Positions 4,433 through 21,688 of a DNA stretch of 48,131 nt are shown here, one piece after another. Position 1 is the stretch's first letter. Each line of letters begins with the position of its first letter. The notes beneath the pieces were generated by a model, which was given only the letters and a program-made list of their open reading frames with translations, searched no databases and was not told the DNA's origin. The stretch comes from an uncultured Chloroflexota bacterium (GTDB lineage Bacteria > Chloroflexota > Limnocylindria > Limnocylindrales > Limnocylindraceae), in contig CAJABS010000116.1 in the NCBI GenBank assembly GCA_903938075.1, forward strand, positions 1 to 48,131, in the 5' to 3' direction. Made by a program: the position numbers and the translations under genes.

Positions 4433-5682
4433 CCGCCTCGTCGAAGCTGCTCGTTCAGAAGTACGGCGGGAGCTCGGTCGGCTCCGTTGAGCGCATTGCC
4501 GCCGTTGTGGCGCGCATCGCGCGCGATCGCGCCGCAGGTCGCGATGTTGTTGTAGTTGTTTCCGCGATGGGCGACACCACCGACGACTTGCTCGCGTTGG
4601 CGTCGTCGGTCACTGGCGGCGCACTGCCAAACGCGCGCGAGCAAGATGCGCTGCTCGCCACTGGCGAGATTCAGTCGGCCGCGTTACTGGCCATGGCCCT
4701 TATTGCGCGCGGCACCGATGCCATCTCGCTGAGTGGTGCCCAGGCGGGGATCAGCGCCGACGGCACCTACGGCAAGGGGCGCATCGCTGGCATTGAGCCG
4801 AAGCGCGTGCGCGCCGAACTCGACGCTGGTCGGGTCGTGATCGTGGCGGGATTCCAGGGGGTGAGCGAGGGCTCCGAAACGACGACCCTAGGCCGTGGCG
4901 GCTCCGACACCTCGGCGGTCGCGTTGGCGGCAGCCCTGGGGGCGGATCGCTGCCAGATCTTTACCGACGTGCGTGGCGTCTACACCGCCGACCCCCGCGC
5001 CGTGCCCGCCGCCCGCCAACTCTCGGTCGTGGGGTACGAGGAGATGCTCGAGCTCGCCAACCAGGGGGCCCAGGTCATGCAGACCCGCGCCGTGGAGCTC
5101 GGCTGGGTCAATAACGTAGCCATTGAAGTACTCAGTTCATTTGAGGAGCAGCCAGGGACAGTAATCAAGGAGGATACGCAGGTGGAGAAGCGCAATAAGG
5201 TTCGCGGCCTGGCGGCCGATACGAAGGTGGCGAAGGTGACCATGGTTGCCGTGCCCGACAAGCCCGGTATCGCGCGCTCGGTGTTCGATCCGCTCTCGGC
5301 GTCAAACATCAACGTCGACATGATCGTGCAGAACATCTCGCATGACGGCACTACCGACCTCTCGTTCACCACCTCGCGCGCAGATCTTGCCGCGGCACGC
5401 CCCGTGCTCGAAAAGATTCGCGCCGAGATTGGTGCGCGCGCACTTGAGATCGACGAGAACGTGGCAAAGGTGTCGATCGTTGGTGCCGGTATTCAGAATG
5501 CGCCAGGCTACGCCGCGCGCATGTTCGGCACACTCGCCGATGCGAAGATCAACATTCAGATGATCTCAACATCCGAGATTCGCATCACCTGCATTGTTAG
5601 CGAGTCTGACGCGCCACGCGCACTGCAGGCGTTGCACGATGCGTTTGATTTGGCAACGCCCGACGCCGTCGACACGGAGTAG
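4429..5682 (+). CDS. lysC: Aspartate kinase with C-terminal ACT domains
   Basis: 417 aa. VQKYGGSSVGS and LGRGGSDTSAVALAAAL motifs, with two ACT-like repeats at the C-terminus. The GTG start overlaps the thrB stop (GTGA). Confidence 0.92.
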   Translation: MTASSKLLVQKYGGSSVGSVERIAAVVARIARDRAAGRDVVVVVSAMGDTTDDLLALASSVTGGALPNAREQDALLATGEIQSAALLAMALIARGTDAISLSGAQAGISADGTYGKGRIAGIEPKRVRAELDAGRVVIVAGFQGVSEGSETTTLGRGGSDTSAVALAAALGADRCQIFTDVRGVYTADPRAVPAARQLSVVGYEEMLELANQGAQVMQTRAVELGWVNNVAIEVLSSFEEQPGTVIKEDTQVEKRNKVRGLAADTKVAKVTMVAVPDKPGIARSVFDPLSASNINVDMIVQNISHDGTTDLSFTTSRADLAAARPVLEKIRAEIGARALEIDENVAKVSIVGAGIQNAPGYAARMFGTLADAKINIQMISTSEIRITCIVSESDAPRALQALHDAFDLATPDAVDTE

Positions 5683-10846: not shown

Positions 10847-11596
10847 ATGAAGCGCGTCGTCGTTCTCTCAGACATTCACGGCAACCTCGCCGCACTCGAG
10901 GCCGTCGTCGCGCGCCTCCCGGCCCTGAAGCCTGACCAGGTCGCAATCCTTGGCGATCACGCCCTCTTCGGGCCGCAGCCGTCGGAAACGATCGACCTGA
11001 TTCAGCAGCTGCAGAAGAAGGGTGCGCTTGTGACTGGGGGTACGGGCGACATCGCTGTGGCCGACCTCGACTACGCCGCCTCGTTCCCAAGCCTCGCCGG
11101 TGGCCTACCACCCGGACTGAAGGCTGCAGTGGAGTGGGCATCGGATGCGCTTGATGACGATCGCATCGAATGGCTGCGCTCCCTTCCAAGTGAGCGACGC
11201 ATTCGTTACGGCGAAATTGCCGTCACCTTCTGCCACGCCTCACCCGGCTCGCGCACGATTCCGTTGAGTGCCGACCTTGACCCGTCGACCACGTTGGAGT
11301 TGCTCGGCCAGACCGACTCGCGCGTTGTCTGCGTGGGCTTCACGCATACCGCGCGCGTGAAGGATTACGGCTGGAAGGTGCTCGTCGACGCGGGCTCCGT
11401 TGGCATGCCGTACGACGGCGACGCCACCGCCGCCTTTACCGTGATCGATATTGATCCCGAGGAGAAGACCATCAACGCCGAGGTCTATCGCGCCAGCTAC
11501 GACACCGAAAAGGTCGCCGACGCGATTAGCGCGCGTGGCCTGACGGGCGATACCTATCGCGCCGCAACGCTCCGCTCCGGGAAGCTGGTGCGATGA
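10847..11596 (+). CDS. Metallophosphoesterase (YfcE/MJ0936-like calcineurin-fold)
   Basis: 249 aa. VVVLSDIHGN, ILGDH, and later His motifs (FCHASP, GFTHT). The stop overlaps the fabF ATG (ATGA). Confidence 0.7.
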   Translation: MKRVVVLSDIHGNLAALEAVVARLPALKPDQVAILGDHALFGPQPSETIDLIQQLQKKGALVTGGTGDIAVADLDYAASFPSLAGGLPPGLKAAVEWASDALDDDRIEWLRSLPSERRIRYGEIAVTFCHASPGSRTIPLSADLDPSTTLELLGQTDSRVVCVGFTHTARVKDYGWKVLVDAGSVGMPYDGDATAAFTVIDIDPEEKTINAEVYRASYDTEKVADAISARGLTGDTYRAATLRSGKLVR

Positions 11597-12867
11597 ACAA
11601 CGAGCAGCGCGTCGTCGTAACGGGGATGGGGGCGGTCTCACCGCTCGGCCGTGGCGTTGCCGCGCTTTGGGACGGCCTTCTCGCCGGACGCTCCGGCGTT
11701 CGCGCGTTGCAGGGCCTCGACCTCACCGGCCAAGAGGTCGACTTCGGCGGGCAGGCGATCGACTTCGATCCTTCTGATGTGCTCGAGCCGAAGCAGATCA
11801 AGCGCCTCGATCGCTTCACGCACTTCGCCATCGCCGCTGCCGCTGAGGCACTCGCCTCCGCCGGGTTGCCACCACGATTTGAAGCGGGCGAATCATCCGA
11901 AGGGGTCGCCACAATCATCGGCTCTGGGCTTGGTGGCGCGACTACCTTGTTTGAACAGGCCGCCGTCTTCGCCGAGCGCGGCGCCGGTCGCATCTCGCCC
12001 TTCTTGGTTCCCGCCGCCATTGGCAACATGGCCTCGGGCGAAGTGGCGATTCACGTTGGCGCACAGGGCCCGTCGTTCGGCGCGGTGAGCGCCTGCGCCA
12101 CCGCCGGTCACGCGATTGGTGAGGCGTACGAGATGATTCGCCGCGGCGACGCGACTATCGCACTCGCCGGCGGCACCGAGGCGGCGCTCCACCCAGTGGT
12201 GATCGCGGGATTCAACAACATGCGTGCCCTCTCGCGCAGCGGTGCATCGTCCACCGGTGGCAATCCTGCCGCCGCATCACGACCGTTCGATAGCGGTCGC
12301 GATGGATTCGTGATGGCCGAAGGAGCTGGCATCCTGCTGTTGGAGCGACTCGATGTGGCACTCGCCCGCGGCGCAACGCCGCTCGCTGAGCTGGTGGGCT
12401 ACGGCGCCACCGCCGACGCGTTGCACATCACCCTGCCAGCACCTGGCGGCTCAGGTGCCGTTCGCGCCGCGCGCCGCGCACTCGCCAAGGCGGGTCGCAC
12501 CGGTGCAGAGATCGATCATGTCAATGCGCATGCCACCTCAACGCCCGAGGGCGATAAGGCAGAGCTCGAAGCGATTCGCACGATCCTCGGCGAGGGATCC
12601 CGCGCGAGTGTCACCGCCACGAAGGGCGCTATCGGCCACACCCTTGGCGCCGCGGGCGGACTCGGTTCCATCGCCACAATCTGCGCCATGCGCGATGGAC
12701 GTGTGCATCCAACGTTGAATCTCACCGCACCAGATCCAGCCTCCGTTGGCCTGAACATCGTCACCGGCGCACCAGCTGCGCAGCAGGTGAACCTGGCACT
12801 GGTGAATGCCTTCGGCTTCGGCGGGCAGAACTCGGCCCTCCTCTTTGCGAAGTGGGAGGGGAAGTAA
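11593..12867 (+). CDS. fabF: Beta-ketoacyl-ACP synthase II
   Basis: 424 aa. VVVTGMGAVSPLG, active-site ACATAGHAIG, HATSTPEGD, GHTLGAAG. Confidence 0.92.
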   Translation: MNNEQRVVVTGMGAVSPLGRGVAALWDGLLAGRSGVRALQGLDLTGQEVDFGGQAIDFDPSDVLEPKQIKRLDRFTHFAIAAAAEALASAGLPPRFEAGESSEGVATIIGSGLGGATTLFEQAAVFAERGAGRISPFLVPAAIGNMASGEVAIHVGAQGPSFGAVSACATAGHAIGEAYEMIRRGDATIALAGGTEAALHPVVIAGFNNMRALSRSGASSTGGNPAAASRPFDSGRDGFVMAEGAGILLLERLDVALARGATPLAELVGYGATADALHITLPAPGGSGAVRAARRALAKAGRTGAEIDHVNAHATSTPEGDKAELEAIRTILGEGSRASVTATKGAIGHTLGAAGGLGSIATICAMRDGRVHPTLNLTAPDPASVGLNIVTGAPAAQQVNLALVNAFGFGGQNSALLFAKWEGK

Positions 12868-13637
12868 TGGCCGAGAAGCGTCGCGTTCGACTGCAGAAGA
12901 GCGCTCGCCGCGCACTCGAGGCGGCACGCGATGCGGCGCGACGCGCGCGCGGTGACGCACCAGAAGTTGTGCCATCGAGCGACGTAACGACACCGTCGAC
13001 GCCAGCCATTGAGCGACTCGCGCCGCGAAATCCATCGCGCCTCATTGAGAGCGCACTGCCAGCGGCGGCCTCTGCAGCGCAGAGCACCCCACCACGACCG
13101 CGGAAGGGGGAGAGCCGCAGCGGCGCGCGACTCCCAGCAAACCTGCCACTCACGACCGACGACGCCGCCTTGATTGAGATCATTGACCGCCTCGCCGTTG
13201 TTGCCGACGGGAGCGGCCTTGCCGAGGTTGAACTCTCGTCTGGTGGCACGCGCGTGGTGGTGCGCAGCCGCAGTGCCGTACAGGGGAGCCACGTGGTGGT
13301 GACTGGCGCCGCCGTACCGCCAACCACTGCAAGCGCCGCGCCGGTGCCACTCCCAACAGGGGCAAAGCCAGCGCCAGCCAGCGCAACCGCACCAGCTGGA
13401 CCCGTGGTGAGCGCGCCGCTTACCGGCATCTTCTACGCCGCCCCATCACCAGGTGCACCCGCATTCATCTCGGTCGGATCGATCGTGGCGGTCGGTCAGC
13501 CGATCGGTCTCATTGAGGCGATGAAGCTCTTCAACGAGATCAAGAGCGATAAGGCGGGTCGCGTGGTGCGCATCATTGCGCAGGATGGCCTCTTGGTGAA
13601 GGCGAAGTCGCCGATCATTGAGGTGGAGCCAGCATGA
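12867..13637 (+). CDS. accB: Biotin carboxyl carrier protein with a roughly 100-aa basic N-terminal extension
   Basis: ATG at 12867 overlaps the fabF TAA and follows GGGAGGGG. Canonical IGLIEAMKLFNEIKSD biotinylation motif. A BCCP N-domain (IEIIDRLAVVADGSGLAEVELSSGG) is preceded by an Arg-rich region. Confidence 0.88.
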   Translation: MAEKRRVRLQKSARRALEAARDAARRARGDAPEVVPSSDVTTPSTPAIERLAPRNPSRLIESALPAAASAAQSTPPRPRKGESRSGARLPANLPLTTDDAALIEIIDRLAVVADGSGLAEVELSSGGTRVVVRSRSAVQGSHVVVTGAAVPPTTASAAPVPLPTGAKPAPASATAPAGPVVSAPLTGIFYAAPSPGAPAFISVGSIVAVGQPIGLIEAMKLFNEIKSDKAGRVVRIIAQDGLLVKAKSPIIEVEPA

Positions 13638-14815
13638 GCGGCCCGCTCACCAACGGTGACGCAACGCGTATCGGCGGCGAATCAGGGCTCGCGGCGCTCC
13701 CGAATCGTACGACTCACATCGTGGGATGGGGGCACGAGGTGCCGAAGGCGGTCATCACCAACGCCGATCTTGAGAAGATCGTGGAGACGAGCGACGAGTG
13801 GATCAGTACGCGCACCGGCATTCGCGAGCGACACATCGCTGGCACTGGTGAGACCACCGCATCGATGGGGGCGATTGCCGCCGCCCGTGCACTGGCCGTT
13901 GCCGGTGTCTCTGCCGACTCGGTTGACCTGATCGTTGTTGCAACCCTCACACCAGATCACCCGATGCCGAGCACTGCGGTGCTGGTGAAGGAGGCGATCG
14001 GCAGCCATCGCGCCGCCGCCTTCGATCTGTCGGCCGCCTGCTCCGGGTTTGCCTACGCATACGCCGTCGCGCACGGCTTCCTCACCGCTGGCCTTGGTCA
14101 GCGCGCACTCGTGATTGGCGCCGAGTCACTCTCGCGCGTGGTCGACTGGAGCGATCGTTCCACCTGTGTGCTCTTTGGCGATGGCGCTGGTGCGATCGTG
14201 CTTGATGCACTTGATCTGCACGACGACCAGAACATTGCAACACGACCAGGCACCCTGAGCTTCGAGCTCTCTGCAGATCCGTCGGGTGCATTCGCGCTCT
14301 GGATCCCTGGCGGCTCAGGAGACGACGCTGATCCGTTGATCAAGATGGATGGGGCGAAGACGTACGTGTATGCAACGCGGACCATGGCTGCGGTCGCGAC
14401 GGCGGCGATCGAACGCGCCGGCCTCACCATTCCCGAGGTGGATCTGGTGATCCCACATCAGGCGAACCTGCGCATTATCGAACACGTCTCCAAGGCGATC
14501 GGCTACCCAATGGAGAAGATCTTCGTGAATCTCGACCGCTACGGAAACACCTCGGCGGCGAGCATCCCGATCGCCCTCTCCGAGGCGGTCGCTGCAGGTC
14601 GACTGAAGCCGGGCGATGTCTTCTGCACGGTGGCCTTCGGTGGCGGCTACACCTCAGGCGCCTTCGTCACCCGCTGGGATGCCGACCCCGCCAACGGCGC
14701 ACGCGCCGCGGCGGTCGATCCGAGCACGATCACGGTTCGACGCCCCGAGGGGGGAGCGAAGGCGGCCGAGGTACCTGCGGCGCTGAAGGCGCTGCTAGAC
14801 GCAAAGCGCCGCTAG
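13634..14815 (+). CDS. fabH: Beta-ketoacyl-ACP synthase III with N- and C-terminal extensions
   Basis: 393 aa. SDEWISTRTGIRERH, AACSGFAYA (Cys), HQANLRI, GNTSAASIP. ATGA overlap with accB. Confidence 0.9.
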   Translation: MSGPLTNGDATRIGGESGLAALPNRTTHIVGWGHEVPKAVITNADLEKIVETSDEWISTRTGIRERHIAGTGETTASMGAIAAARALAVAGVSADSVDLIVVATLTPDHPMPSTAVLVKEAIGSHRAAAFDLSAACSGFAYAYAVAHGFLTAGLGQRALVIGAESLSRVVDWSDRSTCVLFGDGAGAIVLDALDLHDDQNIATRPGTLSFELSADPSGAFALWIPGGSGDDADPLIKMDGAKTYVYATRTMAAVATAAIERAGLTIPEVDLVIPHQANLRIIEHVSKAIGYPMEKIFVNLDRYGNTSAASIPIALSEAVAAGRLKPGDVFCTVAFGGGYTSGAFVTRWDADPANGARAAAVDPSTITVRRPEGGAKAAEVPAALKALLDAKRR

Positions 14816-14857
14816 GCGCGACACTACGCACAACAGCCCCAACAGAGGAGGTTTCAC

Positions 14858-15607
14858 ATGTTTGAACTCAACGGATACGCCGCCATCGTCACCGGTGGTG
14901 CTCGCGGCATTGGCCGCGCGATCGCCGTCGCCCTCGCCGATGCTGGCGCCGACGTGCTGATCACTTATAAGGGGAACACCGCCGCCGCCGATGCCGTGGT
15001 CGCCGAGATCACCGCCAAGGGTCGCAAGGCGATTGCCATGCAGGCCGACGCCGCCGATCCCGACGCCGCCGTTACCGTGGTGGCGAAGGCGATCGAAGTG
15101 TTCGGCAAGCTCGACCTGCTCGTGAACAACGCGGGCATCACCCGCGACACGCTCATCTTGCGCATGACGCCAGAGCAGTGGCGCGAGGTCATCGACACGA
15201 ATCTTTCGGGCGCCTTCTACATGACGAAGGCCGCGGTGAAGGAGATGCTGCGCGCCAAGAGTGGCCGCATCGTCAACATCACCAGCGTCTCGGGTCAGGC
15301 GGGGAACGCCGGCCAGGCGAACTACAGCTCGGCGAAGGCCGGCATGATCGGCCTCACCAAGGCAACGGCGCGCGAGGTGGCGAGCCGCGGCATTACCGTG
15401 AACGCGGTCGCGCCAGGCTTCATCGTCACCGAGCTCACCACCGATCTTCCTGAAGCGATTAAAGAGGGCGTGAAGTCAGCAACCCCGCTCGGCCGCTTCG
15501 GTGAGCCGAACGAGATCGCCGCCGCCGTGATCTACCTTGCATCGCGCGAGGCTTCGTACGTGACCGGACAGGTGCTCGGCGTCGACGGCGGACTGGTGAT
15601 GATGTAG
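14858..15607 (+). CDS. fabG: 3-oxoacyl-ACP reductase
   Basis: 249 aa SDR. TGGARGIGRAIA, NNAGI, YSSAKAG. RBS GAGGAGG upstream. Confidence 0.88.
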   Translation: MFELNGYAAIVTGGARGIGRAIAVALADAGADVLITYKGNTAAADAVVAEITAKGRKAIAMQADAADPDAAVTVVAKAIEVFGKLDLLVNNAGITRDTLILRMTPEQWREVIDTNLSGAFYMTKAAVKEMLRAKSGRIVNITSVSGQAGNAGQANYSSAKAGMIGLTKATAREVASRGITVNAVAPGFIVTELTTDLPEAIKEGVKSATPLGRFGEPNEIAAAVIYLASREASYVTGQVLGVDGGLVMM

Positions 15608-17125: not shown

Positions 17126-18391
17126 CTAGGCGGCGAGGCCGAGGATGTTTACCAGAACGATCCCCACGTTCAAGACGGCGAGGATTGCCACAGAGCTCCA
17201 GCCAACGAGGCGCAACCAGCGCGGCGAGACGTGCTCGCCGAGGAGCGACTTACTGCTCGTGAGCTTCACAATGAAGGCGAGCACGATCGGCAGGAAGAGC
17301 CCCTGAAGGTACTGGCTGCTGATGATTGCGCCGATCGGGTTCAACCCGGGGAGCATCACCACGATGGCGCCAATCGCCAAGATCGCAGTGAAGATGCCGT
17401 AGAAGATCGGTGCCTCGCTCAGGCGCTTGTCGACACCTGACTCAAAGCCGAACGCTTCGGAGAGGGCGAAGGCGGTGGTGAGTGGCATGATCGCCATCGC
17501 CAGCAGGCTTGCACCAAAGAGGCCAGCACCAAAGAGGATCTTCGAGAACTCGCCAGCGAGCGGCTCGAGGGCGACCGCCGCCTCTGCCGCCGAACCGATC
17601 GGCTTGCCGAGTGAACCGAGGGCGACCGCCGTGGCGATCACCACACAGGCGGCGATGAAGTTCGTCCAGATAGAGCCAAGGATCGCGTCGGCGCGAGCGG
17701 CGCCGAGCCGCTCAACGCCGATCCCTTTCTCGGCGACCGCAGACTGCAGATAGAACTGCATGTACGGCGTCACGGTTGTTCCGACGACCGCCACCAGCAG
17801 GAGCATCTCTGCCCCCGAAACGCCGGCAAGGCTTGGTGTCGTGAGTGAAGAGGCGACCGCCGCCCAGTTTGGATTCGCCAAGAGTGCAGCGGCGATGTAG
17901 GCCAAGAAGACGGCGGTGAGCGCCAAGAAGATTCGCTCCACACTGCGGTAACTGCCGTAGACCACGAGCAGCCAAACGATCAGGGCGGAGAAAGGTGCCG
18001 TAAGCAGGATCGGCACGTTGAAGATCGCCATGGCGGATGCGGCGCCCGCAACGTTTGCCACGGTGTTGGCGAGGTTCGCGAGCAGCAAGACCACCATGGC
18101 AAAGAGCGCCCAGCGCACGCCGAAGCGCTCACGGATCAGGTCGGAGAGCCCTTGACCAGTAACGACGCCGAGCCGCGCCACCGACTCTTGGACAAGGGCG
18201 AGGAGCAGCGCCGTGAGCGGCAGAATCCACAAGAAGCGCAGTCCGGTCTGCGAGCCGAGGGTGGCGTAGGTGGTGATACCGCCGGCATCGTTTCCGGCGA
18301 CGCCTGCGATGAGGCCAGGCCCAACGACCGCCAAGAAGGCGAGTGGTCCGCGGCGACGGCGAAAGAGATCACGCAGGCCGAGGCTAGCCAC
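17126..18391 (-). CDS. Nramp/SLC11-family transporter with NRMT-like (Mg2+-type) substitutions in the metal site
   Basis: 421 aa and polytopic. The TM1 region GPGLIAGVAGNDAGGITTY corresponds to the canonical DPGN. The TM6 region VGTTVTPYMQFYLQSA corresponds to the canonical MPHN segment. GTG start. Confidence 0.8.
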   Translation of the reverse strand: MASLGLRDLFRRRRGPLAFLAVVGPGLIAGVAGNDAGGITTYATLGSQTGLRFLWILPLTALLLALVQESVARLGVVTGQGLSDLIRERFGVRWALFAMVVLLLANLANTVANVAGAASAMAIFNVPILLTAPFSALIVWLLVVYGSYRSVERIFLALTAVFLAYIAAALLANPNWAAVASSLTTPSLAGVSGAEMLLLVAVVGTTVTPYMQFYLQSAVAEKGIGVERLGAARADAILGSIWTNFIAACVVIATAVALGSLGKPIGSAAEAAVALEPLAGEFSKILFGAGLFGASLLAMAIMPLTTAFALSEAFGFESGVDKRLSEAPIFYGIFTAILAIGAIVVMLPGLNPIGAIISSQYLQGLFLPIVLAFIVKLTSSKSLLGEHVSPRWLRLVGWSSVAILAVLNVGIVLVNILGLAA

Positions 18392-19772
18392 GCTTCACCG
18401 AGCTCTTCTTTCGCGCCTGCGACTTGCGTGGTTTTGCTGGCGCCTTTGCGCCACGCTTTGCTGTGGTGCGTGCGGGTACCTCTTGTGGTCCGGCCGCGGC
18501 GATGCTGTCGGCATGGAGGCGGCGTGGCATCTCGCGGCGCCACTCTTCAGGGAGCACATCCCAGAGCGCGTCGCTCACGGTGATCACCCCCATGAGTCGA
18601 TGGTTGGCATCAACGACTGGAACGGCGACAAGGCCGTAGCGCGTAACGACGCGGGCAACCTCATCGGAGTGCGCCAACAGCTCAACGGCGACCGGATCGT
18701 CTTCCATGAGTTCACCGACCGTGGTGTTGGGTGCGGCAAGCACCAGGTCACGCAGCGTCACCTCGCCCAAGAGTCGTCGCTTGCCGTCGACCACATACAC
18801 GGCGAAGGCCACCTCGGCATCGGGCTCGTGACGGCGAATTGCGGAGAGCGCCTCAGCTACAGTCGCCTGCGGACGCAACGCAACATGCTCCGTAGTCATC
18901 AGACCGCCGGCGCTCTTCTCTGGGTGCGCGAGCAGCTCCTGCACATCATCGCGCTCCTCTTTTGTCATCAGGCGCAAGATCTCTTTACGGCTTAGTGGTG
19001 AGAGTTCGGCGACAGCGTCAGCCGCCTCGTCCGGGCTCATCTCTTCCAAGAGGTCAGCGGCGCGCTCTGGCTCCAAGTCTTCGAGCAGGTCGGTGCGTGT
19101 CTCTGGCTCCAACTCCTCGAGCGCCTCGGCGGCAACCTCTTCGTCAAGGGTGCTGAAGATGTCGGCGCGGTCGCGCGGCGTCAGCTGGTCAACAATGGTC
19201 GCAAGATCGGCCGGGTGCAGCTCAGAGAGGCCGGCGTGCGGAACGCGCAGCCGTACGCTCGCAATGGTGGATCCGAGTGGGTCAACATCCTCCCAATCAA
19301 TGTACGAGGCGACGCGCGACTGCTCGCCCGAGAGTCGATTGATCCAGGTGTCAGGGAGGCCGAGTCGGCGCAGCAGTCCGGCGGTGCCAACATCAACGGC
19401 AACCAGGCGCATCGCCCCCTCAACAAAGTCGAGGATCACGTCGTTGGCGCGCACGACCTTGCGGCCGTCGATATCAACGATCTGCTTATCAAGGAGGTCG
19501 CCCTTCAGGAGGATCTCGTCTTCGCGTCGTCGGAAGCGGCTGATGTTGACGCGCGTCGCCAAAATTGTGGCCCCTGCGGCATCCATACGCTCCACGCTGC
19601 TCCAGCCGAGATAGATGCGACGGCGCCCTGTTCGAACGACGAGCCCGGTGATTGGGGGGTGGCTCGTACCAACGGCGGCAATGAGGTCGTCGATGACGCC
19701 GATCGTGTCGGCGCTGCTGTCGCGCACGGGTTGCCCAATGAGTCGTGAGAGGTGGAGCATACTGCCCTCCAA
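18384..19772 (-). CDS. Soluble PRC-barrel / MgtE N-domain / tandem CBS protein (MgtE cytosolic sensor module without the MgtE membrane domain)
   Basis: 462 aa. PRC-like LIGQPVRDSSADTIGVIDDLI, acidic MgtE_N-like repeats (EELEPETRTDLLEDLEPERAADLLEEMSPDEAADAVAEL), CBS pair (MTTEHVALRPQATVAEAL.., VVDANHRLMGVITVSD). It ends in a Lys/Arg-rich tail with no TM segments. Its stop overlaps the downstream transporter start by 8 nt. Confidence 0.8.
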   Translation of the reverse strand: MEGSMLHLSRLIGQPVRDSSADTIGVIDDLIAAVGTSHPPITGLVVRTGRRRIYLGWSSVERMDAAGATILATRVNISRFRRREDEILLKGDLLDKQIVDIDGRKVVRANDVILDFVEGAMRLVAVDVGTAGLLRRLGLPDTWINRLSGEQSRVASYIDWEDVDPLGSTIASVRLRVPHAGLSELHPADLATIVDQLTPRDRADIFSTLDEEVAAEALEELEPETRTDLLEDLEPERAADLLEEMSPDEAADAVAELSPLSRKEILRLMTKEERDDVQELLAHPEKSAGGLMTTEHVALRPQATVAEALSAIRRHEPDAEVAFAVYVVDGKRRLLGEVTLRDLVLAAPNTTVGELMEDDPVAVELLAHSDEVARVVTRYGLVAVPVVDANHRLMGVITVSDALWDVLPEEWRREMPRRLHADSIAAAGPQEVPARTTAKRGAKAPAKPRKSQARKKSSVKRG

Positions 19773-19841
19773 TGCTGTGCGCCGGCTCCTGCGGTCACGA
19801 GGAGTCTACGCGGGAGCCCCCGCTCGCGCTACCCTGACCCT

Positions 19842-20738
19842 ATGCCTGAATCACCATCGGCCCGCCGACGCACCCGCTCCCTCGCCACGGCGCGCCTTGC
19901 CGCCCTCACCGATACGGCGGCAGAGATTGGCGAAGTCGAGGTTTCGCGCCCCTGGGCTGAGACGATCGTTGCCGTTGCCGTCGCTGCAGGCGTCGCCCAC
20001 TTCGCGACCGGCCCAGGAACCGTCTTGGCTGGCGCTGGCGCCGCCCTGCTCGGTGCGGTCGGGGTGAATGCCGTCCGCCGTGCCGAGGTCCGCGACCTAC
20101 CAATGGGTACGGAGGTGGTGCTCGGTGGTTTAATCGCCCTCTCCATTGCCGGGGTAGTGCGCCTCGTCCCAACGGGGATTGGCGCCGTGATTGCGATCAC
20201 CGCAGGGATCGGCATCCTTCGCGCCGTTATTGAGTGGCAGCTACGCCTGCGCCGCAGCAGCAACGGCTCACTGCATCGCGATCGAGTGGTCAGCTTGGCC
20301 GTCTTTACCCTGGTCCTCTTCGCCGCCTCCATCGGCATCTCCGCCCTCGTGCCAGGGGTCGTGACGCTCCCTGGCACCCCGTCGGCGCGTCCAGATCCTG
20401 TGGGACCCCTCGCCGTCCTGGCCGTTGGCATCGGGAGCGCCGCAGTGGCCGCCACTCTTGCCGCGGGAATGTCGAGCCTTCGACGCGAGCGAACCTCTGC
20501 GATCGTGCGCGATGCCCTCGGCGCTGCGGCGCTGAACGGCGCCGCCTCCATCCTCTTCGCCTCGGTCGGCGTCGCACGGCTCGCTGGCCCGGCGGGTCTC
20601 GCCGTCCTCTTCTATGCCCGTGAGATTTGGGCGGCAACCCCCGAGGGGGAGCGCCGCGACCCACGCCTCATCTTCGAAATCATCGCCCTCACGCTCGCCA
20701 CGGGGGTGGCTCTCCTCTGGATCGGGGTCGGTCGCTAA
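19842..20738 (+). CDS. Hypothetical polytopic membrane protein
   Basis: In-frame ATG at 19842 (MPESPSARRR..). Multiple Ala/Gly/Val/Leu-rich predicted TM stretches. No recognised family. Confidence 0.5.
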   Translation: MPESPSARRRTRSLATARLAALTDTAAEIGEVEVSRPWAETIVAVAVAAGVAHFATGPGTVLAGAGAALLGAVGVNAVRRAEVRDLPMGTEVVLGGLIALSIAGVVRLVPTGIGAVIAITAGIGILRAVIEWQLRLRRSSNGSLHRDRVVSLAVFTLVLFAASIGISALVPGVVTLPGTPSARPDPVGPLAVLAVGIGSAAVAATLAAGMSSLRRERTSAIVRDALGAAALNGAASILFASVGVARLAGPAGLAVLFYAREIWAATPEGERRDPRLIFEIIALTLATGVALLWIGVGR

Positions 20739-20809
20739 CGATCGGCTATCCTTCCCCAACGTCATAGCGGGGGGCATCAGCCCGCATGCACTGAATTGAG
20801 GAGGCGCCC

Positions 20810-21688
20810 GTGACCCTCGCCAACGAGACCCCAACCACCCAGAAGCCGAGCCGCACCGCTAAGGAGCAGGCCGACATCGCCTTGAAGGCAGCAGCCGCCG
20901 GTCGTTGGCAGGAGGCGAGCGAGGCGAACAACGCGATTCTCGCCCTTGGTGACGCCATCAAGGTGGAGGAGCGCATCGAAGCGCAGAATCGTCTCGCCAA
21001 GTGCCTCTGGGAGCAGGGCGACCTCGCCGGCTCCAAGAAGGAGTACCAGGCAACGCTCGCCCTTGATCCACTCAATCGCATCGCCGAGCGCAACCTTGAG
21101 CGCCTGAAGGGCCTCATTAAGCAGGTTGGCAAGAAGACCACCGCGAGCACCGAAGGCGCAACGACGCCCGCAGGCATCTTTATTCAAGAGGCGGGGACCA
21201 CTGGGTTCGCCGCACTCACCCATGTAGCCGATGCGGGAACCCTTGCGCAGGTAAACCCTGGCGACTCGGTTGAGCTAATCGTTCTCGGCAATCGACTGAT
21301 CGCCAAGGCGAACGGCATTGAGATCGGTCGCGTTGAGCCGCGCATCGCTGCACGACTCGTTAAGTTGATCGGCGATGGGAATAGCTACACCTCGGGGATC
21401 ACCTCGATTAGTGGTGGCGACATTCGCATCATCATTCGCGAAGAGCATGTGAGCGCCGGCAATGTGGGCAAGGTCTCCTTCCCAACCGCCACGCGCACCA
21501 GCGATGAGCGACCGTATACGAAGGGCTCGTTCTTCCGCGATGACGAGGGCTTCGCCGACGATGACGAGGATACGTACGAAGAGGAGACGCCAGTCGCAGA
21601 GCGACCAAGCGTTGAGCCGCCAGAGAAGACCTCTGACGACGCATTCCTTCCCGAGAGCGAAGAGGCTGGCGGCAACAACGACGATTAG
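20810..21688 (+). CDS. Hypothetical protein: N-terminal TPR-like repeat, central HIRAN-like segment, strongly acidic C-terminal tail
   Basis: 292 aa, GTG start. TPR-like WQEASEANNAILALGD..AKCLWEQGDLAGSKKEYQATLALDPLN. Central GDSVELIVLGNRLIAKANGIEIGRVEPRIAARLVKLIGDG. Tail DDEGFADDDEDTYEEE..ESEEAGGNNDD. Confidence 0.55.
   Translation: MTLANETPTTQKPSRTAKEQADIALKAAAAGRWQEASEANNAILALGDAIKVEERIEAQNRLAKCLWEQGDLAGSKKEYQATLALDPLNRIAERNLERLKGLIKQVGKKTTASTEGATTPAGIFIQEAGTTGFAALTHVADAGTLAQVNPGDSVELIVLGNRLIAKANGIEIGRVEPRIAARLVKLIGDGNSYTSGITSISGGDIRIIIREEHVSAGNVGKVSFPTATRTSDERPYTKGSFFRDDEGFADDDEDTYEEETPVAERPSVEPPEKTSDDAFLPESEEAGGNNDD

Follow-up and report, generated by a model that had tools for sequence, protein, structure and literature searches.

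A pore-less MgtE-like protein encoded in one operon with an NRMT-type transporter in "Ca. Limnocylindrus" (Chloroflexota)

Nramp-related magnesium transporters (NRMTs) form the fourth class of Mg2+ importers in bacteria; they are uncoupled, which makes the limitation of their activity a real question. Shin et al. (2014, PLoS Genet; PMC4072509), who named these transporters NrmT, reported an ancillary gene for an MgtE cytosolic domain beside most nrmT genes and proposed feedback regulation, with metal chaperone activity offered as an alternative role for the ancillary protein. Since 2014 this MgtE-like neighbor has been the obvious candidate for limiting NRMT. Here, we describe such a pair in a stretch of 48,131 nucleotides from an uncultured Chloroflexota bacterium (contig CAJABS010000116.1, positions 1 to 48,131; the whole stretch is referred to below as the window). 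It consists of a gene for an NRMT-type transporter of the Nramp/SLC11 family and a gene for a pore-less MgtE-like protein, hereafter the partner.

The clostridial NrmTs transport Mg2+ (PMC4072509), and NRMTs are active without the partner, both in B. subtilis (PMC4072509) and in proteoliposomes (PMC8806188). The Mg2+ site of EleNRMT, the E. lenta transporter, includes T224 of transmembrane segment (TM) 6, which is needed for Mg2+, and a TM1 glycine (G58) replacing Asn, while the Met is lost (PMC8806188). Transport by EleNRMT is uncoupled from H+, with the TM6b histidines replaced by Trp and Asn, and extends to Mn2+ as well as Mg2+ (PMC8806188). No characterization of the partner after Shin et al. 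was found in the literature, and it is not discussed in the EleNRMT paper, the Cellier 2022 analysis or the 2026 Nramp preprint. The first-pass annotation of the window knew of no characterization of such a system; in fact, both the gene pair and the feedback idea were published in 2014 (PMC4072509). The window carries an ortholog of this published "MgtE-like fragment + nrmT" pair, and the system has been known since then.

The NRMT gene and its partner in the window

Both genes lie on the minus strand. The NRMT gene occupies positions 17126..18391 (421 amino acids, GTG start), and the list of open reading frames (ORFs) of the window places a 462-amino-acid ORF, the maximal one from the first TTG, upstream of it at positions 18384..19772. 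The two overlap by 8 nt (GTGGCTAG, 18384..18391, minus strand), a stretch that holds the GTG start of the NRMT gene and the TAG stop of the partner gene; the sequence bears out the limits and the overlap given in the first-pass annotation. The actual start codon of the partner is probably ATG 19760 (458 amino acids), since a GGAGGG Shine-Dalgarno sequence is located 5 nt before this ATG and the nearest partner homologue, P0001, is also 458 amino acids long. The two genes form a bicistronic operon, and their overlapping stop and start codons suggest translational coupling. We regard the gene identities of both operon members as practically certain. The closest genome record, at 98% identity, is a metagenome-assembled genome (MAG) of "Ca. 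Limnocylindrus sp." (L001), and the source organism is a freshwater "Ca. Limnocylindrus" (Chloroflexota).

The transporter matched the Nramp family of Pfam (PF01566, E = 1.8e-78) and contains 12 hydrophobic segments. Its best match among solved structures was EleNRMT (7qia; E = 2.5e-98, 333 bits; 42% identity in alignment A1), whereas canonical Nramp structures all scored at most 105 bits. The TM1 motif N-D-A-G-G (N34-D35-A36-G37-G38; 18278..18292, minus strand) is the same as NDAGG of EleNRMT, with G38, the equivalent of EleNRMT G58, standing for the canonical Asn of D-P-G-N. The TM6 motif G-T-T-V-T-P-Y-M (G204-T205-T206-V207-T208-P209, followed by Y210; 17759..17782, minus strand) aligned with G-T-T-I-A-P-W-M of EleNRMT and G-A-T-V-M-P-H of DraNramp. 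In this alignment, T205 is equivalent to EleNRMT T224 and stands for the canonical Ala, T208 occupies the canonical Met position (Ala in EleNRMT), and Y210 that of the canonical His. When TM6b P-Y-M-Q-F-Y-L-Q-S was aligned with P-H-V-I-Y-L-H-S of DraNramp, one His corresponded to Tyr210 and the other to Gln216; the TM6b histidines of the H+ pathway are lost. The altered metal site of NRMT pattern proposed from the sequence at first pass was thus recovered from the translation and the alignment to EleNRMT and DraNramp, and the site residues do not align as canonical Mn2+-type.

Species-representative genomes were scanned with an NRMT alignment. At least 550 relatives were retrieved, and the best 80 loci were analyzed; they come from Chloroflexota, Clostridia and other Bacillota, Nitrospirota, Acidobacteriota, Syntrophia/Desulfobacterota, Dormibacterota, Armatimonadota, NC10, Myxococcota and others. 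NDAGG was present in TM1 at 70 of the 80 loci and (N/Q)D(A/S/T)GG at 79. The residue at the TM6 Met position was Thr in 40 loci, Ala in 37 and Ser in 3, and the replacement of Met by Thr is therefore an ordinary NRMT variant. Judged by its sequence, the transporter belongs to the NRMT clade, all tested site residues being NRMT-type, and D35, G38, T205 and T208 make up a predicted hydrated-Mg2+-type site. Its expected activity, extrapolated from EleNRMT, is the uncoupled import of Mg2+ and of Mn2+ as well.

The partner starts with a PRC-barrel at residues 6-67 (19572..19757; these and the following coordinates refer to the minus strand), which matched PF05239 with 35.2 bits against a cutoff of 21.2. 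A second, PRC-like barrel at residues ~86-165 (19278..19517) was recognized by a sub-threshold PRC match (E = 0.0011, 19.3 bits) and by its fold in an AlphaFold2 model. Then follow an MgtE_N domain at residues 185-286 (18915..19220; PF03448, E = 8e-26), which is highly acidic (31 D/E in 102 residues), a CBS pair at residues 289-405 (18558..18908; PF00571, two stretches, E = 1e-16) and a Lys/Arg-rich C-terminal tail, predicted to be disordered, at residues 419-462 (18387..18518). The basic character of the tail, pointed out in the first-pass annotation, is evident from 12 K/R versus 2 D/E in the last 44 residues. The PRC-MgtE_N-CBS architecture given there also stands, except that one PRC-barrel had been listed and the second barrel has to be added.

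The protein has no pore. No Pfam match to the MgtE membrane domain (PF01769) was obtained with the partner, and no hydrophobic segment is present in it (the maximum 19-residue Kyte-Doolittle mean is 1.34). Against the TIGR00400 model of full-length mgtE, the partner scored 170.4 bits (cutoff 232.75) and covered profile positions 27-254 only. The cytosolic domain of T. thermophilus MgtE (TtMgtE; 2yvy) matched it with E = 1e-40 by sequence and E = 2.7e-21 in a Foldseek comparison with the AlphaFold2 model, and MgtE cytosolic domains were the best PDB matches of the full model. Since the Nramp gene starts within the partner's stop codon, there is no room for a partner membrane domain. For the same reason, a hidden MgtE membrane domain or a frameshift in the window was ruled out, and correction of starts and stops does not fuse the upstream protein to a membrane domain. 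The lack of such a domain had been correctly called at first pass. The term "split" MgtE used there is a misnomer: there is no separate gene for an MgtE membrane domain, and the protein is a pore-less MgtE-like one.

The AlphaFold2 model of the whole partner was confident for the first PRC-barrel (predicted local distance difference test, pLDDT, ~84-95), MgtE_N (~90) and the CBS pair (~87), and pLDDT fell below 40 in the predicted disordered tail. Residues 76-180 were modeled with low confidence from a shallow alignment, whereas a more diverse one gave a confident fold for residues 1-182 (pLDDT 82.9, predicted template modeling score 0.82). This N-terminal module matched CdpB1/CdpB2 (8qzo) over its full length (E = 4e-7, template modeling score ~0.6, ~185 aligned columns), and the next fold matches were the single PRC barrels of RimM, CdvA and the reaction-centre H subunit. 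The most strictly invariant residues of the family are located in the second barrel: D95, Q97, D100, G103, K105, R108, N110, D111, G129, G132, R135, R136 and W160. A 311-amino-acid gene call that is 100% identical to the N-terminal module and annotated DUF4337 + PRC (P0282) probably results from a frameshift or from alternative gene calling in a sister assembly.

Partners from other lineages stop 2-13 residues past the CBS pair, with the exceptions of L001 and L009, and homologues at ~58% identity are 418-423 amino acids long. As judged from this comparison, the K/R tail is a local addition confined to the Limnocylindrus clade. With its tandem PRC module, acidic N domain and CBS pair but no pore, the partner is the complete cytosolic half of a PRC-MgtE-type channel, and by its alignment it ends inside what would be the plug helix.

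Residues of TtMgtE were mapped onto the partner through the alignment with 2yvy, in which all 16 residue identities are obtained with an offset of 3. As Mg2+ ligands at the N-domain/CBS/plug interfaces of TtMgtE we take E59, D91, D95, D226, D247 and D250, along with D214, E216, E255, E258 and D259; this assignment was made partly from the CbMgtE and ChMgtE lists by offset. Acidic residues are kept in the partner at E216, D248 and D252, which correspond to TtMgtE E59, D91 and D95, and at D401, D405, E410 and E414 (for D259), and the changes are H368 (for D214), G380 (for D226) and R413 (for E258). Over 63 full-length partners, the E59 position was E/D in all 63, the D91 position was D in 49, the D95 position in 60 and the D247 position in 48, and family-wide conservation of Mg2+ ligands is limited to these four. 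Their conservation makes Mg2+ sensing by the partner through the N-domain/CBS interface plausible, and sites built from N-domain/CBS acidic regions gate MgtE (PMC10200709).

The ATP site presents another picture. TtMgtE Y170, R187, D188, N203 and F227 correspond to A324, R341, D342, E357 and L381 of the partner, and the position of the ATP-stacking F227 is Leu in 54 of the 63 partners; in MgtE, F227A abolishes ATP binding (PMC5529423). ATP regulation in the manner of MgtE was rejected for the partner on the grounds that key ATP-site residues are not conserved, and it has probably been lost.

Distribution, riboswitches and pore-containing relatives

Six-frame ORFs of the 80 NRMT loci were searched by phmmer with the partner of the window. 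A partner-like ORF was found within 5 kb of NRMT at 72 of the 80 loci, in at least 10 phyla, so the pairing noted at the single locus is conserved elsewhere. The partner was directly upstream and on the same strand at 59 loci (59 of 78 informative), upstream but 0.8-3.8 kb away at 10, on the opposite strand at 2 and downstream at 1; it was not found at 6, and 2 loci were uninformative because NRMT lies at a contig edge. Overlapping or near-contiguous junctions are common among the orthologous loci, and a gene overlap was estimated for 12 of the directly upstream cases. Solo NRMTs are exemplified by L016 and L019. Nearly all partner matches started at query residue 4-9, which makes the PRC region part of the conserved architecture. 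No membrane domain was present in the partner-like ORFs of the 80 loci, and no natural partner-Nramp fusion was found either in these loci or among the 120 best module matches. Intact partner ORFs of 410-460 amino acids, with dozens of invariant residues, were present at 63 loci across phyla.

Reverse look-ups were made for four short module-bearing proteins on long contigs. Three of them had Nramp next door, and in these the gene calls interrupt the partner in a frameshift-like manner; the remaining one is an orphan fragment of 163 amino acids away from Nramp. In several long-read MAGs (L005, L059, L082, L083 and L084), the partner is spread over 2-3 neighboring ORFs, which look like frameshift errors, yet resemble the "split into two smaller genes" case of C. 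acetobutylicum. A typical partner + NRMT pair was also seen in a MAG labelled Nanoarchaeota (L020, JAZDHH010000023.1), either by horizontal transfer or as a binning artefact.

The M-box riboswitch (RF00380) was found directly upstream of the partner-NRMT pair in Firmicutes/Bacillota (L015, L023, L026 and L036), Dormibacterota (L029:3545-3713 and L038:3242-3411) and Acidobacteriota (L049:3426-3610). In all, 8 related loci carry an M-box, one of them before a solo NRMT. These data repeat and extend the 2014 observation, and the arrangement is not confined to Firmicutes. Placed upstream of both genes, the M-box connects them jointly with Mg2+ homeostasis. The T-P-Y-M form of TM6 in the window is the form seen in the M-box-controlled clostridial loci. 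In the window itself, no riboswitch matched Rfam at the gathering threshold and none was found at E <= 5 in positions 19500-21000; a search of the window with the M-box profile by nhmmer was also negative. The solo NRMT with its own M-box is that of Clostridium pascui (L019; no partner within 5 kb), where two fluoride riboswitches are located further upstream (1552-1610, 2329-2388 and 4650-4815 for the three elements). T-box leaders were noticed ~1 kb downstream of clostridial NRMT genes (L015:4876-5111 and L026:7215-7450).

An exhaustive search with the N-terminal module retrieved 783 representative clusters at E <= 1e-10. Among the top 150, six clusters (P0391, P0433, P0448, P0454, P0478 and P0504) contain proteins of ~600 amino acids with PRC, MgtE_N, two CBS domains and the MgtE membrane domain (PF01769), that is, complete PRC-MgtE channels, in which the acidic plug helix is intact and 4-6 hydrophobic segments lie at the C terminus. 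The partner is 40-44% identical to them over residues 5-410 (to the end of CBS2), both PRC barrels included, and the "invariant" motif of the second barrel is found in them as well. An NRMT-type Nramp gene immediately follows the channel gene in three of the six clusters, does not in two, and in one is cut by the contig end: of the gene after P0504, 36 residues are present, and no NRMT N-terminal features were seen in them. The channel-linked Nramps have NDAGG and T/C-T-x-A/T-P-W-M and are 43-50% identical to the transporter of the window (channel + NRMT loci: L085:611-3389, L087:5001-8259, L088:1189-4447 and L089:1752-4802). Thus, NRMT linkage holds for pore-containing and pore-less PRC-MgtE forms alike. 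A pore-containing counterpart of the pair is not described in the text of Shin et al. (2014), nor was it found elsewhere in the literature. A neighbor-joining tree, a crude one with one outgroup and no support values, interleaves full-length and soluble forms and does not polarize pore loss or gain.

As for the surroundings of the operon, the flanking genes are on the opposite strand and unrelated: a short-chain dehydrogenase/reductase (SDR) resembling FabG, a weak LCP-like match, an unknown hydrophobic ORF and a TPR protein. At window positions 19752-19772, the partner ORF in its maximal form (TTG 19772) overlaps the 5' end of a divergent ORF (19752..20738; 328 amino acids, hydrophobic, without a Pfam match) whose own start is probably further in. 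A fatty-acid synthesis cluster with ketoacyl synthases and the FabG-like SDR (window 10847-15607) is located near the pair on the opposite strand; in the relative L084 (1-3713), fabF, a biotin-lipoyl gene, fabH and fabG are directly upstream of the partner on the same strand.

Possible role of the partner

We propose that the partner is a Mg2+-responsive, trans-acting negative regulator, or brake, of the uncoupled importer NRMT, and we put the probability of this at about 0.5; its dimerization, Mg2+ binding, docking and inhibitory action are what we infer. Synthesized in step with the carrier by virtue of the overlapping stop and start codons, the partner would probably dimerize through its CBS pairs, as MgtE does, and would sense cytosolic Mg2+ by the acidic clusters retained at the N-domain/CBS interface. 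At high Mg2+, it would become compact and hold the carrier back from its cytosolic face, and the carrier would be set free again when Mg2+ is low. The outcome would be negative feedback for an uncoupled, potential-driven importer, similar to that built into MgtE and CorA. Since there is no M-box riboswitch in the window, control in this organism would be purely post-translational. The partner is expected to be a modulator rather than a core subunit, because NRMTs work alone and solo NRMTs exist. Regulation in trans, as suggested at first pass, is therefore a reasonable proposal.

Several observations weigh against the partner being such a brake. A demonstrated interaction between partner and NRMT, or regulation of one by the other, was not found in the literature. 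When A. capsulatum Acp2976 and Acp2977 were co-expressed in Mg2+-uptake-deficient B. subtilis, there was no further rescue (PMC4072509). Since the assay scored only improved growth at low Mg2+, this result does not refute inhibition. Acp2977, a transporter that is partner-linked and has no riboswitch, gave full rescue of Mn2+ uptake but only partial rescue of Mg2+ uptake (PMC4072509). In the partner family, the TtMgtE D226 position is Asn in 47 of 63 proteins and Gly in the window, and the plug-helix residues E255, E258 and D259 are absent or replaced by Arg/Lys. Finally, the motif of the second PRC barrel is not a dedicated NRMT-docking signature, since it is common to complete PRC-MgtE channels.

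The last point leads to the question of whether the target of the partner is NRMT at all. The partner could be a free Mg2+-responsive module that, for example, forms heterodimers with a full-length MgtE encoded elsewhere or signals to other proteins by way of its PRC barrels, its adjacency to NRMT being that of an inherited mgtE-nrmT operon and a shared regulon. We consider this unlikely but, given that full-length PRC-MgtE + NRMT operons exist, a serious possibility: complete channels precede NRMT in three of six clusters, so adjacency needs no pore-less sensor, the second-barrel motif is shared by both forms, diverse binding partners are known for PRC barrels such as those of CdpB and RimM, and the partner is 0.8-3.8 kb from NRMT at 10 loci and in another orientation at 3. 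Yet the pore-less form is kept under selection beside NRMT in many phyla, with order and strand maintained at 59 of 78 loci; only one of four module look-ups, a 163-amino-acid fragment, was away from Nramp, and no other conserved neighbor was seen. Decay of the gene into a functionless mgtE remnant without a membrane domain might be suspected from the correspondence of the partner to a truncated PRC-MgtE and from fragmented gene calls in some MAGs (L005, L059, L082-L084), but the fragmented cases come from error-prone assemblies, the ORF of the window is intact and has a good Shine-Dalgarno sequence, and intact ORFs of 410-460 amino acids at 63 loci across phyla, together with 783 clusters at E <= 1e-10, effectively refute a decaying relic, which we hold to be extremely improbable.

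If NRMT is the target, the partner may still do something other than inhibit it. A role as a metal chaperone or buffer, or as a positive, stabilizing or assembly factor, would agree with the chaperone activity offered by Shin et al. (PMC4072509), with the very acidic N domain (31 D/E in 102 residues) and with the matched synthesis implied by contiguous or overlapping genes. However, NRMTs do transport with no partner present, in vivo as well as in vitro, co-expression gave no better rescue, and every homologous module of known function, namely that of MgtE, is an inhibitory gate, which makes such a role quite improbable. It is also rather improbable that the transporter is mainly an importer of Mn2+ or a broader range of divalent ions, with the partner responding to Mn2+ or another signal. 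The full rescue of Mn2+ and partial rescue of Mg2+ uptake by the partner-linked, riboswitch-less A. capsulatum NrmT, transport of Mn2+ by EleNRMT, the window without an M-box and the presence of Thr here versus Ala in EleNRMT at the Met position all point in that direction. They are countered by T205 and G38, which match the Mg2+ residues T224 and G58 of EleNRMT, by the T-P-Y-M form shared with M-box-regulated clostridial loci, a group whose clostridial NrmTs transport Mg2+, and by the conserved acidic clusters of the partner, which are the Mg2+ sites of MgtE.

The complete channels allow a wider, tentative proposal, which we regard as possible rather than probable. PRC-bearing MgtE cytosolic modules, with or without a pore, may be dedicated NRMT partners; the pore-less form would have been exapted as a trans gate that docks on a LeuT-fold uniporter, and the operons of ~600-amino-acid PRC-MgtE and NRMT would represent the ancestral or an intermediate state.

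The window itself adds an ordinary ortholog from an abundant freshwater Chloroflexota lineage, one that lacks a riboswitch and whose partner has a basic tail specific to its lineage. The gain is comparative: the partner is a tandem-PRC protein of ~420 amino acids rather than a "small" fragment, it has kept the N-domain Mg2+ ligands and lost the ATP site and the plug, and its pore-containing sisters are likewise linked to NRMT. What remains of value is the mechanism of the partner and the relationship between PRC-MgtE and NRMT. Should an MgtE sensor indeed serve as the NRMT gate, it would be the first one to control a different transporter family, and it would explain how an uncoupled Mg2+ importer escapes overload.

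Comparison with known systems

Like A. capsulatum Acp2976 and the split homologue in the CA_C0685 operon, the partner is encoded immediately upstream of and co-directionally with the transporter and has homology to the N-terminal cytosolic part of MgtE; the Clostridium and Acidobacteriaceae orthologs align with it over the full length. The 2014 description differs in speaking of a "small protein" and in mentioning no PRC module, which takes up the first ~180 residues, and no basic tail. The transporter shares with the NrmT/NRMT proteins CA_C0685 and CA_C3329 of C. acetobutylicum and EleNRMT (7QIA; Ramanadane et al. 2022) the D-A-G-G of TM1, Thr at the position of EleNRMT T224 and the lack of both the Met soft ligand and the TM6b histidines. 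Unlike EleNRMT, it has Thr rather than Ala at the Met position, both being common (40 and 37 of 80 loci), and the pair in the window differs from the clostridial nrmT genes by the absence of an M-box riboswitch.

The partner resembles T. thermophilus MgtE (2YVX, 2YVY) in its MgtE_N domain and CBS pair (~40% identity). It differs in having no membrane domain and in carrying an extra N-terminal tandem PRC module, and its family has lost the acidic cluster of the plug helix and has Leu in place of the ATP-stacking Phe227. From complete PRC-MgtE channels it is distinguished by ending where their plug helix begins. To the archaeal cell division proteins CdpB1/CdpB2 (8QZO; bioRxiv 10.1101/2023.03.28.534520), identity is only 14-17%. 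Their biological context is another one, and, unlike the partner, they have no MgtE_N or CBS domains.

Trans-acting soluble gates of transporters include the RCK rings of KtrA/TrkA on KtrB/TrkH and GlnK on AmtB. Their folds and ligands are unrelated to those considered here, and for NRMT the interaction is predicted only; the partner resembles them as a separately encoded cytosolic protein, presumably ligand-sensing, whose operon also encodes the membrane transporter under its predicted control.

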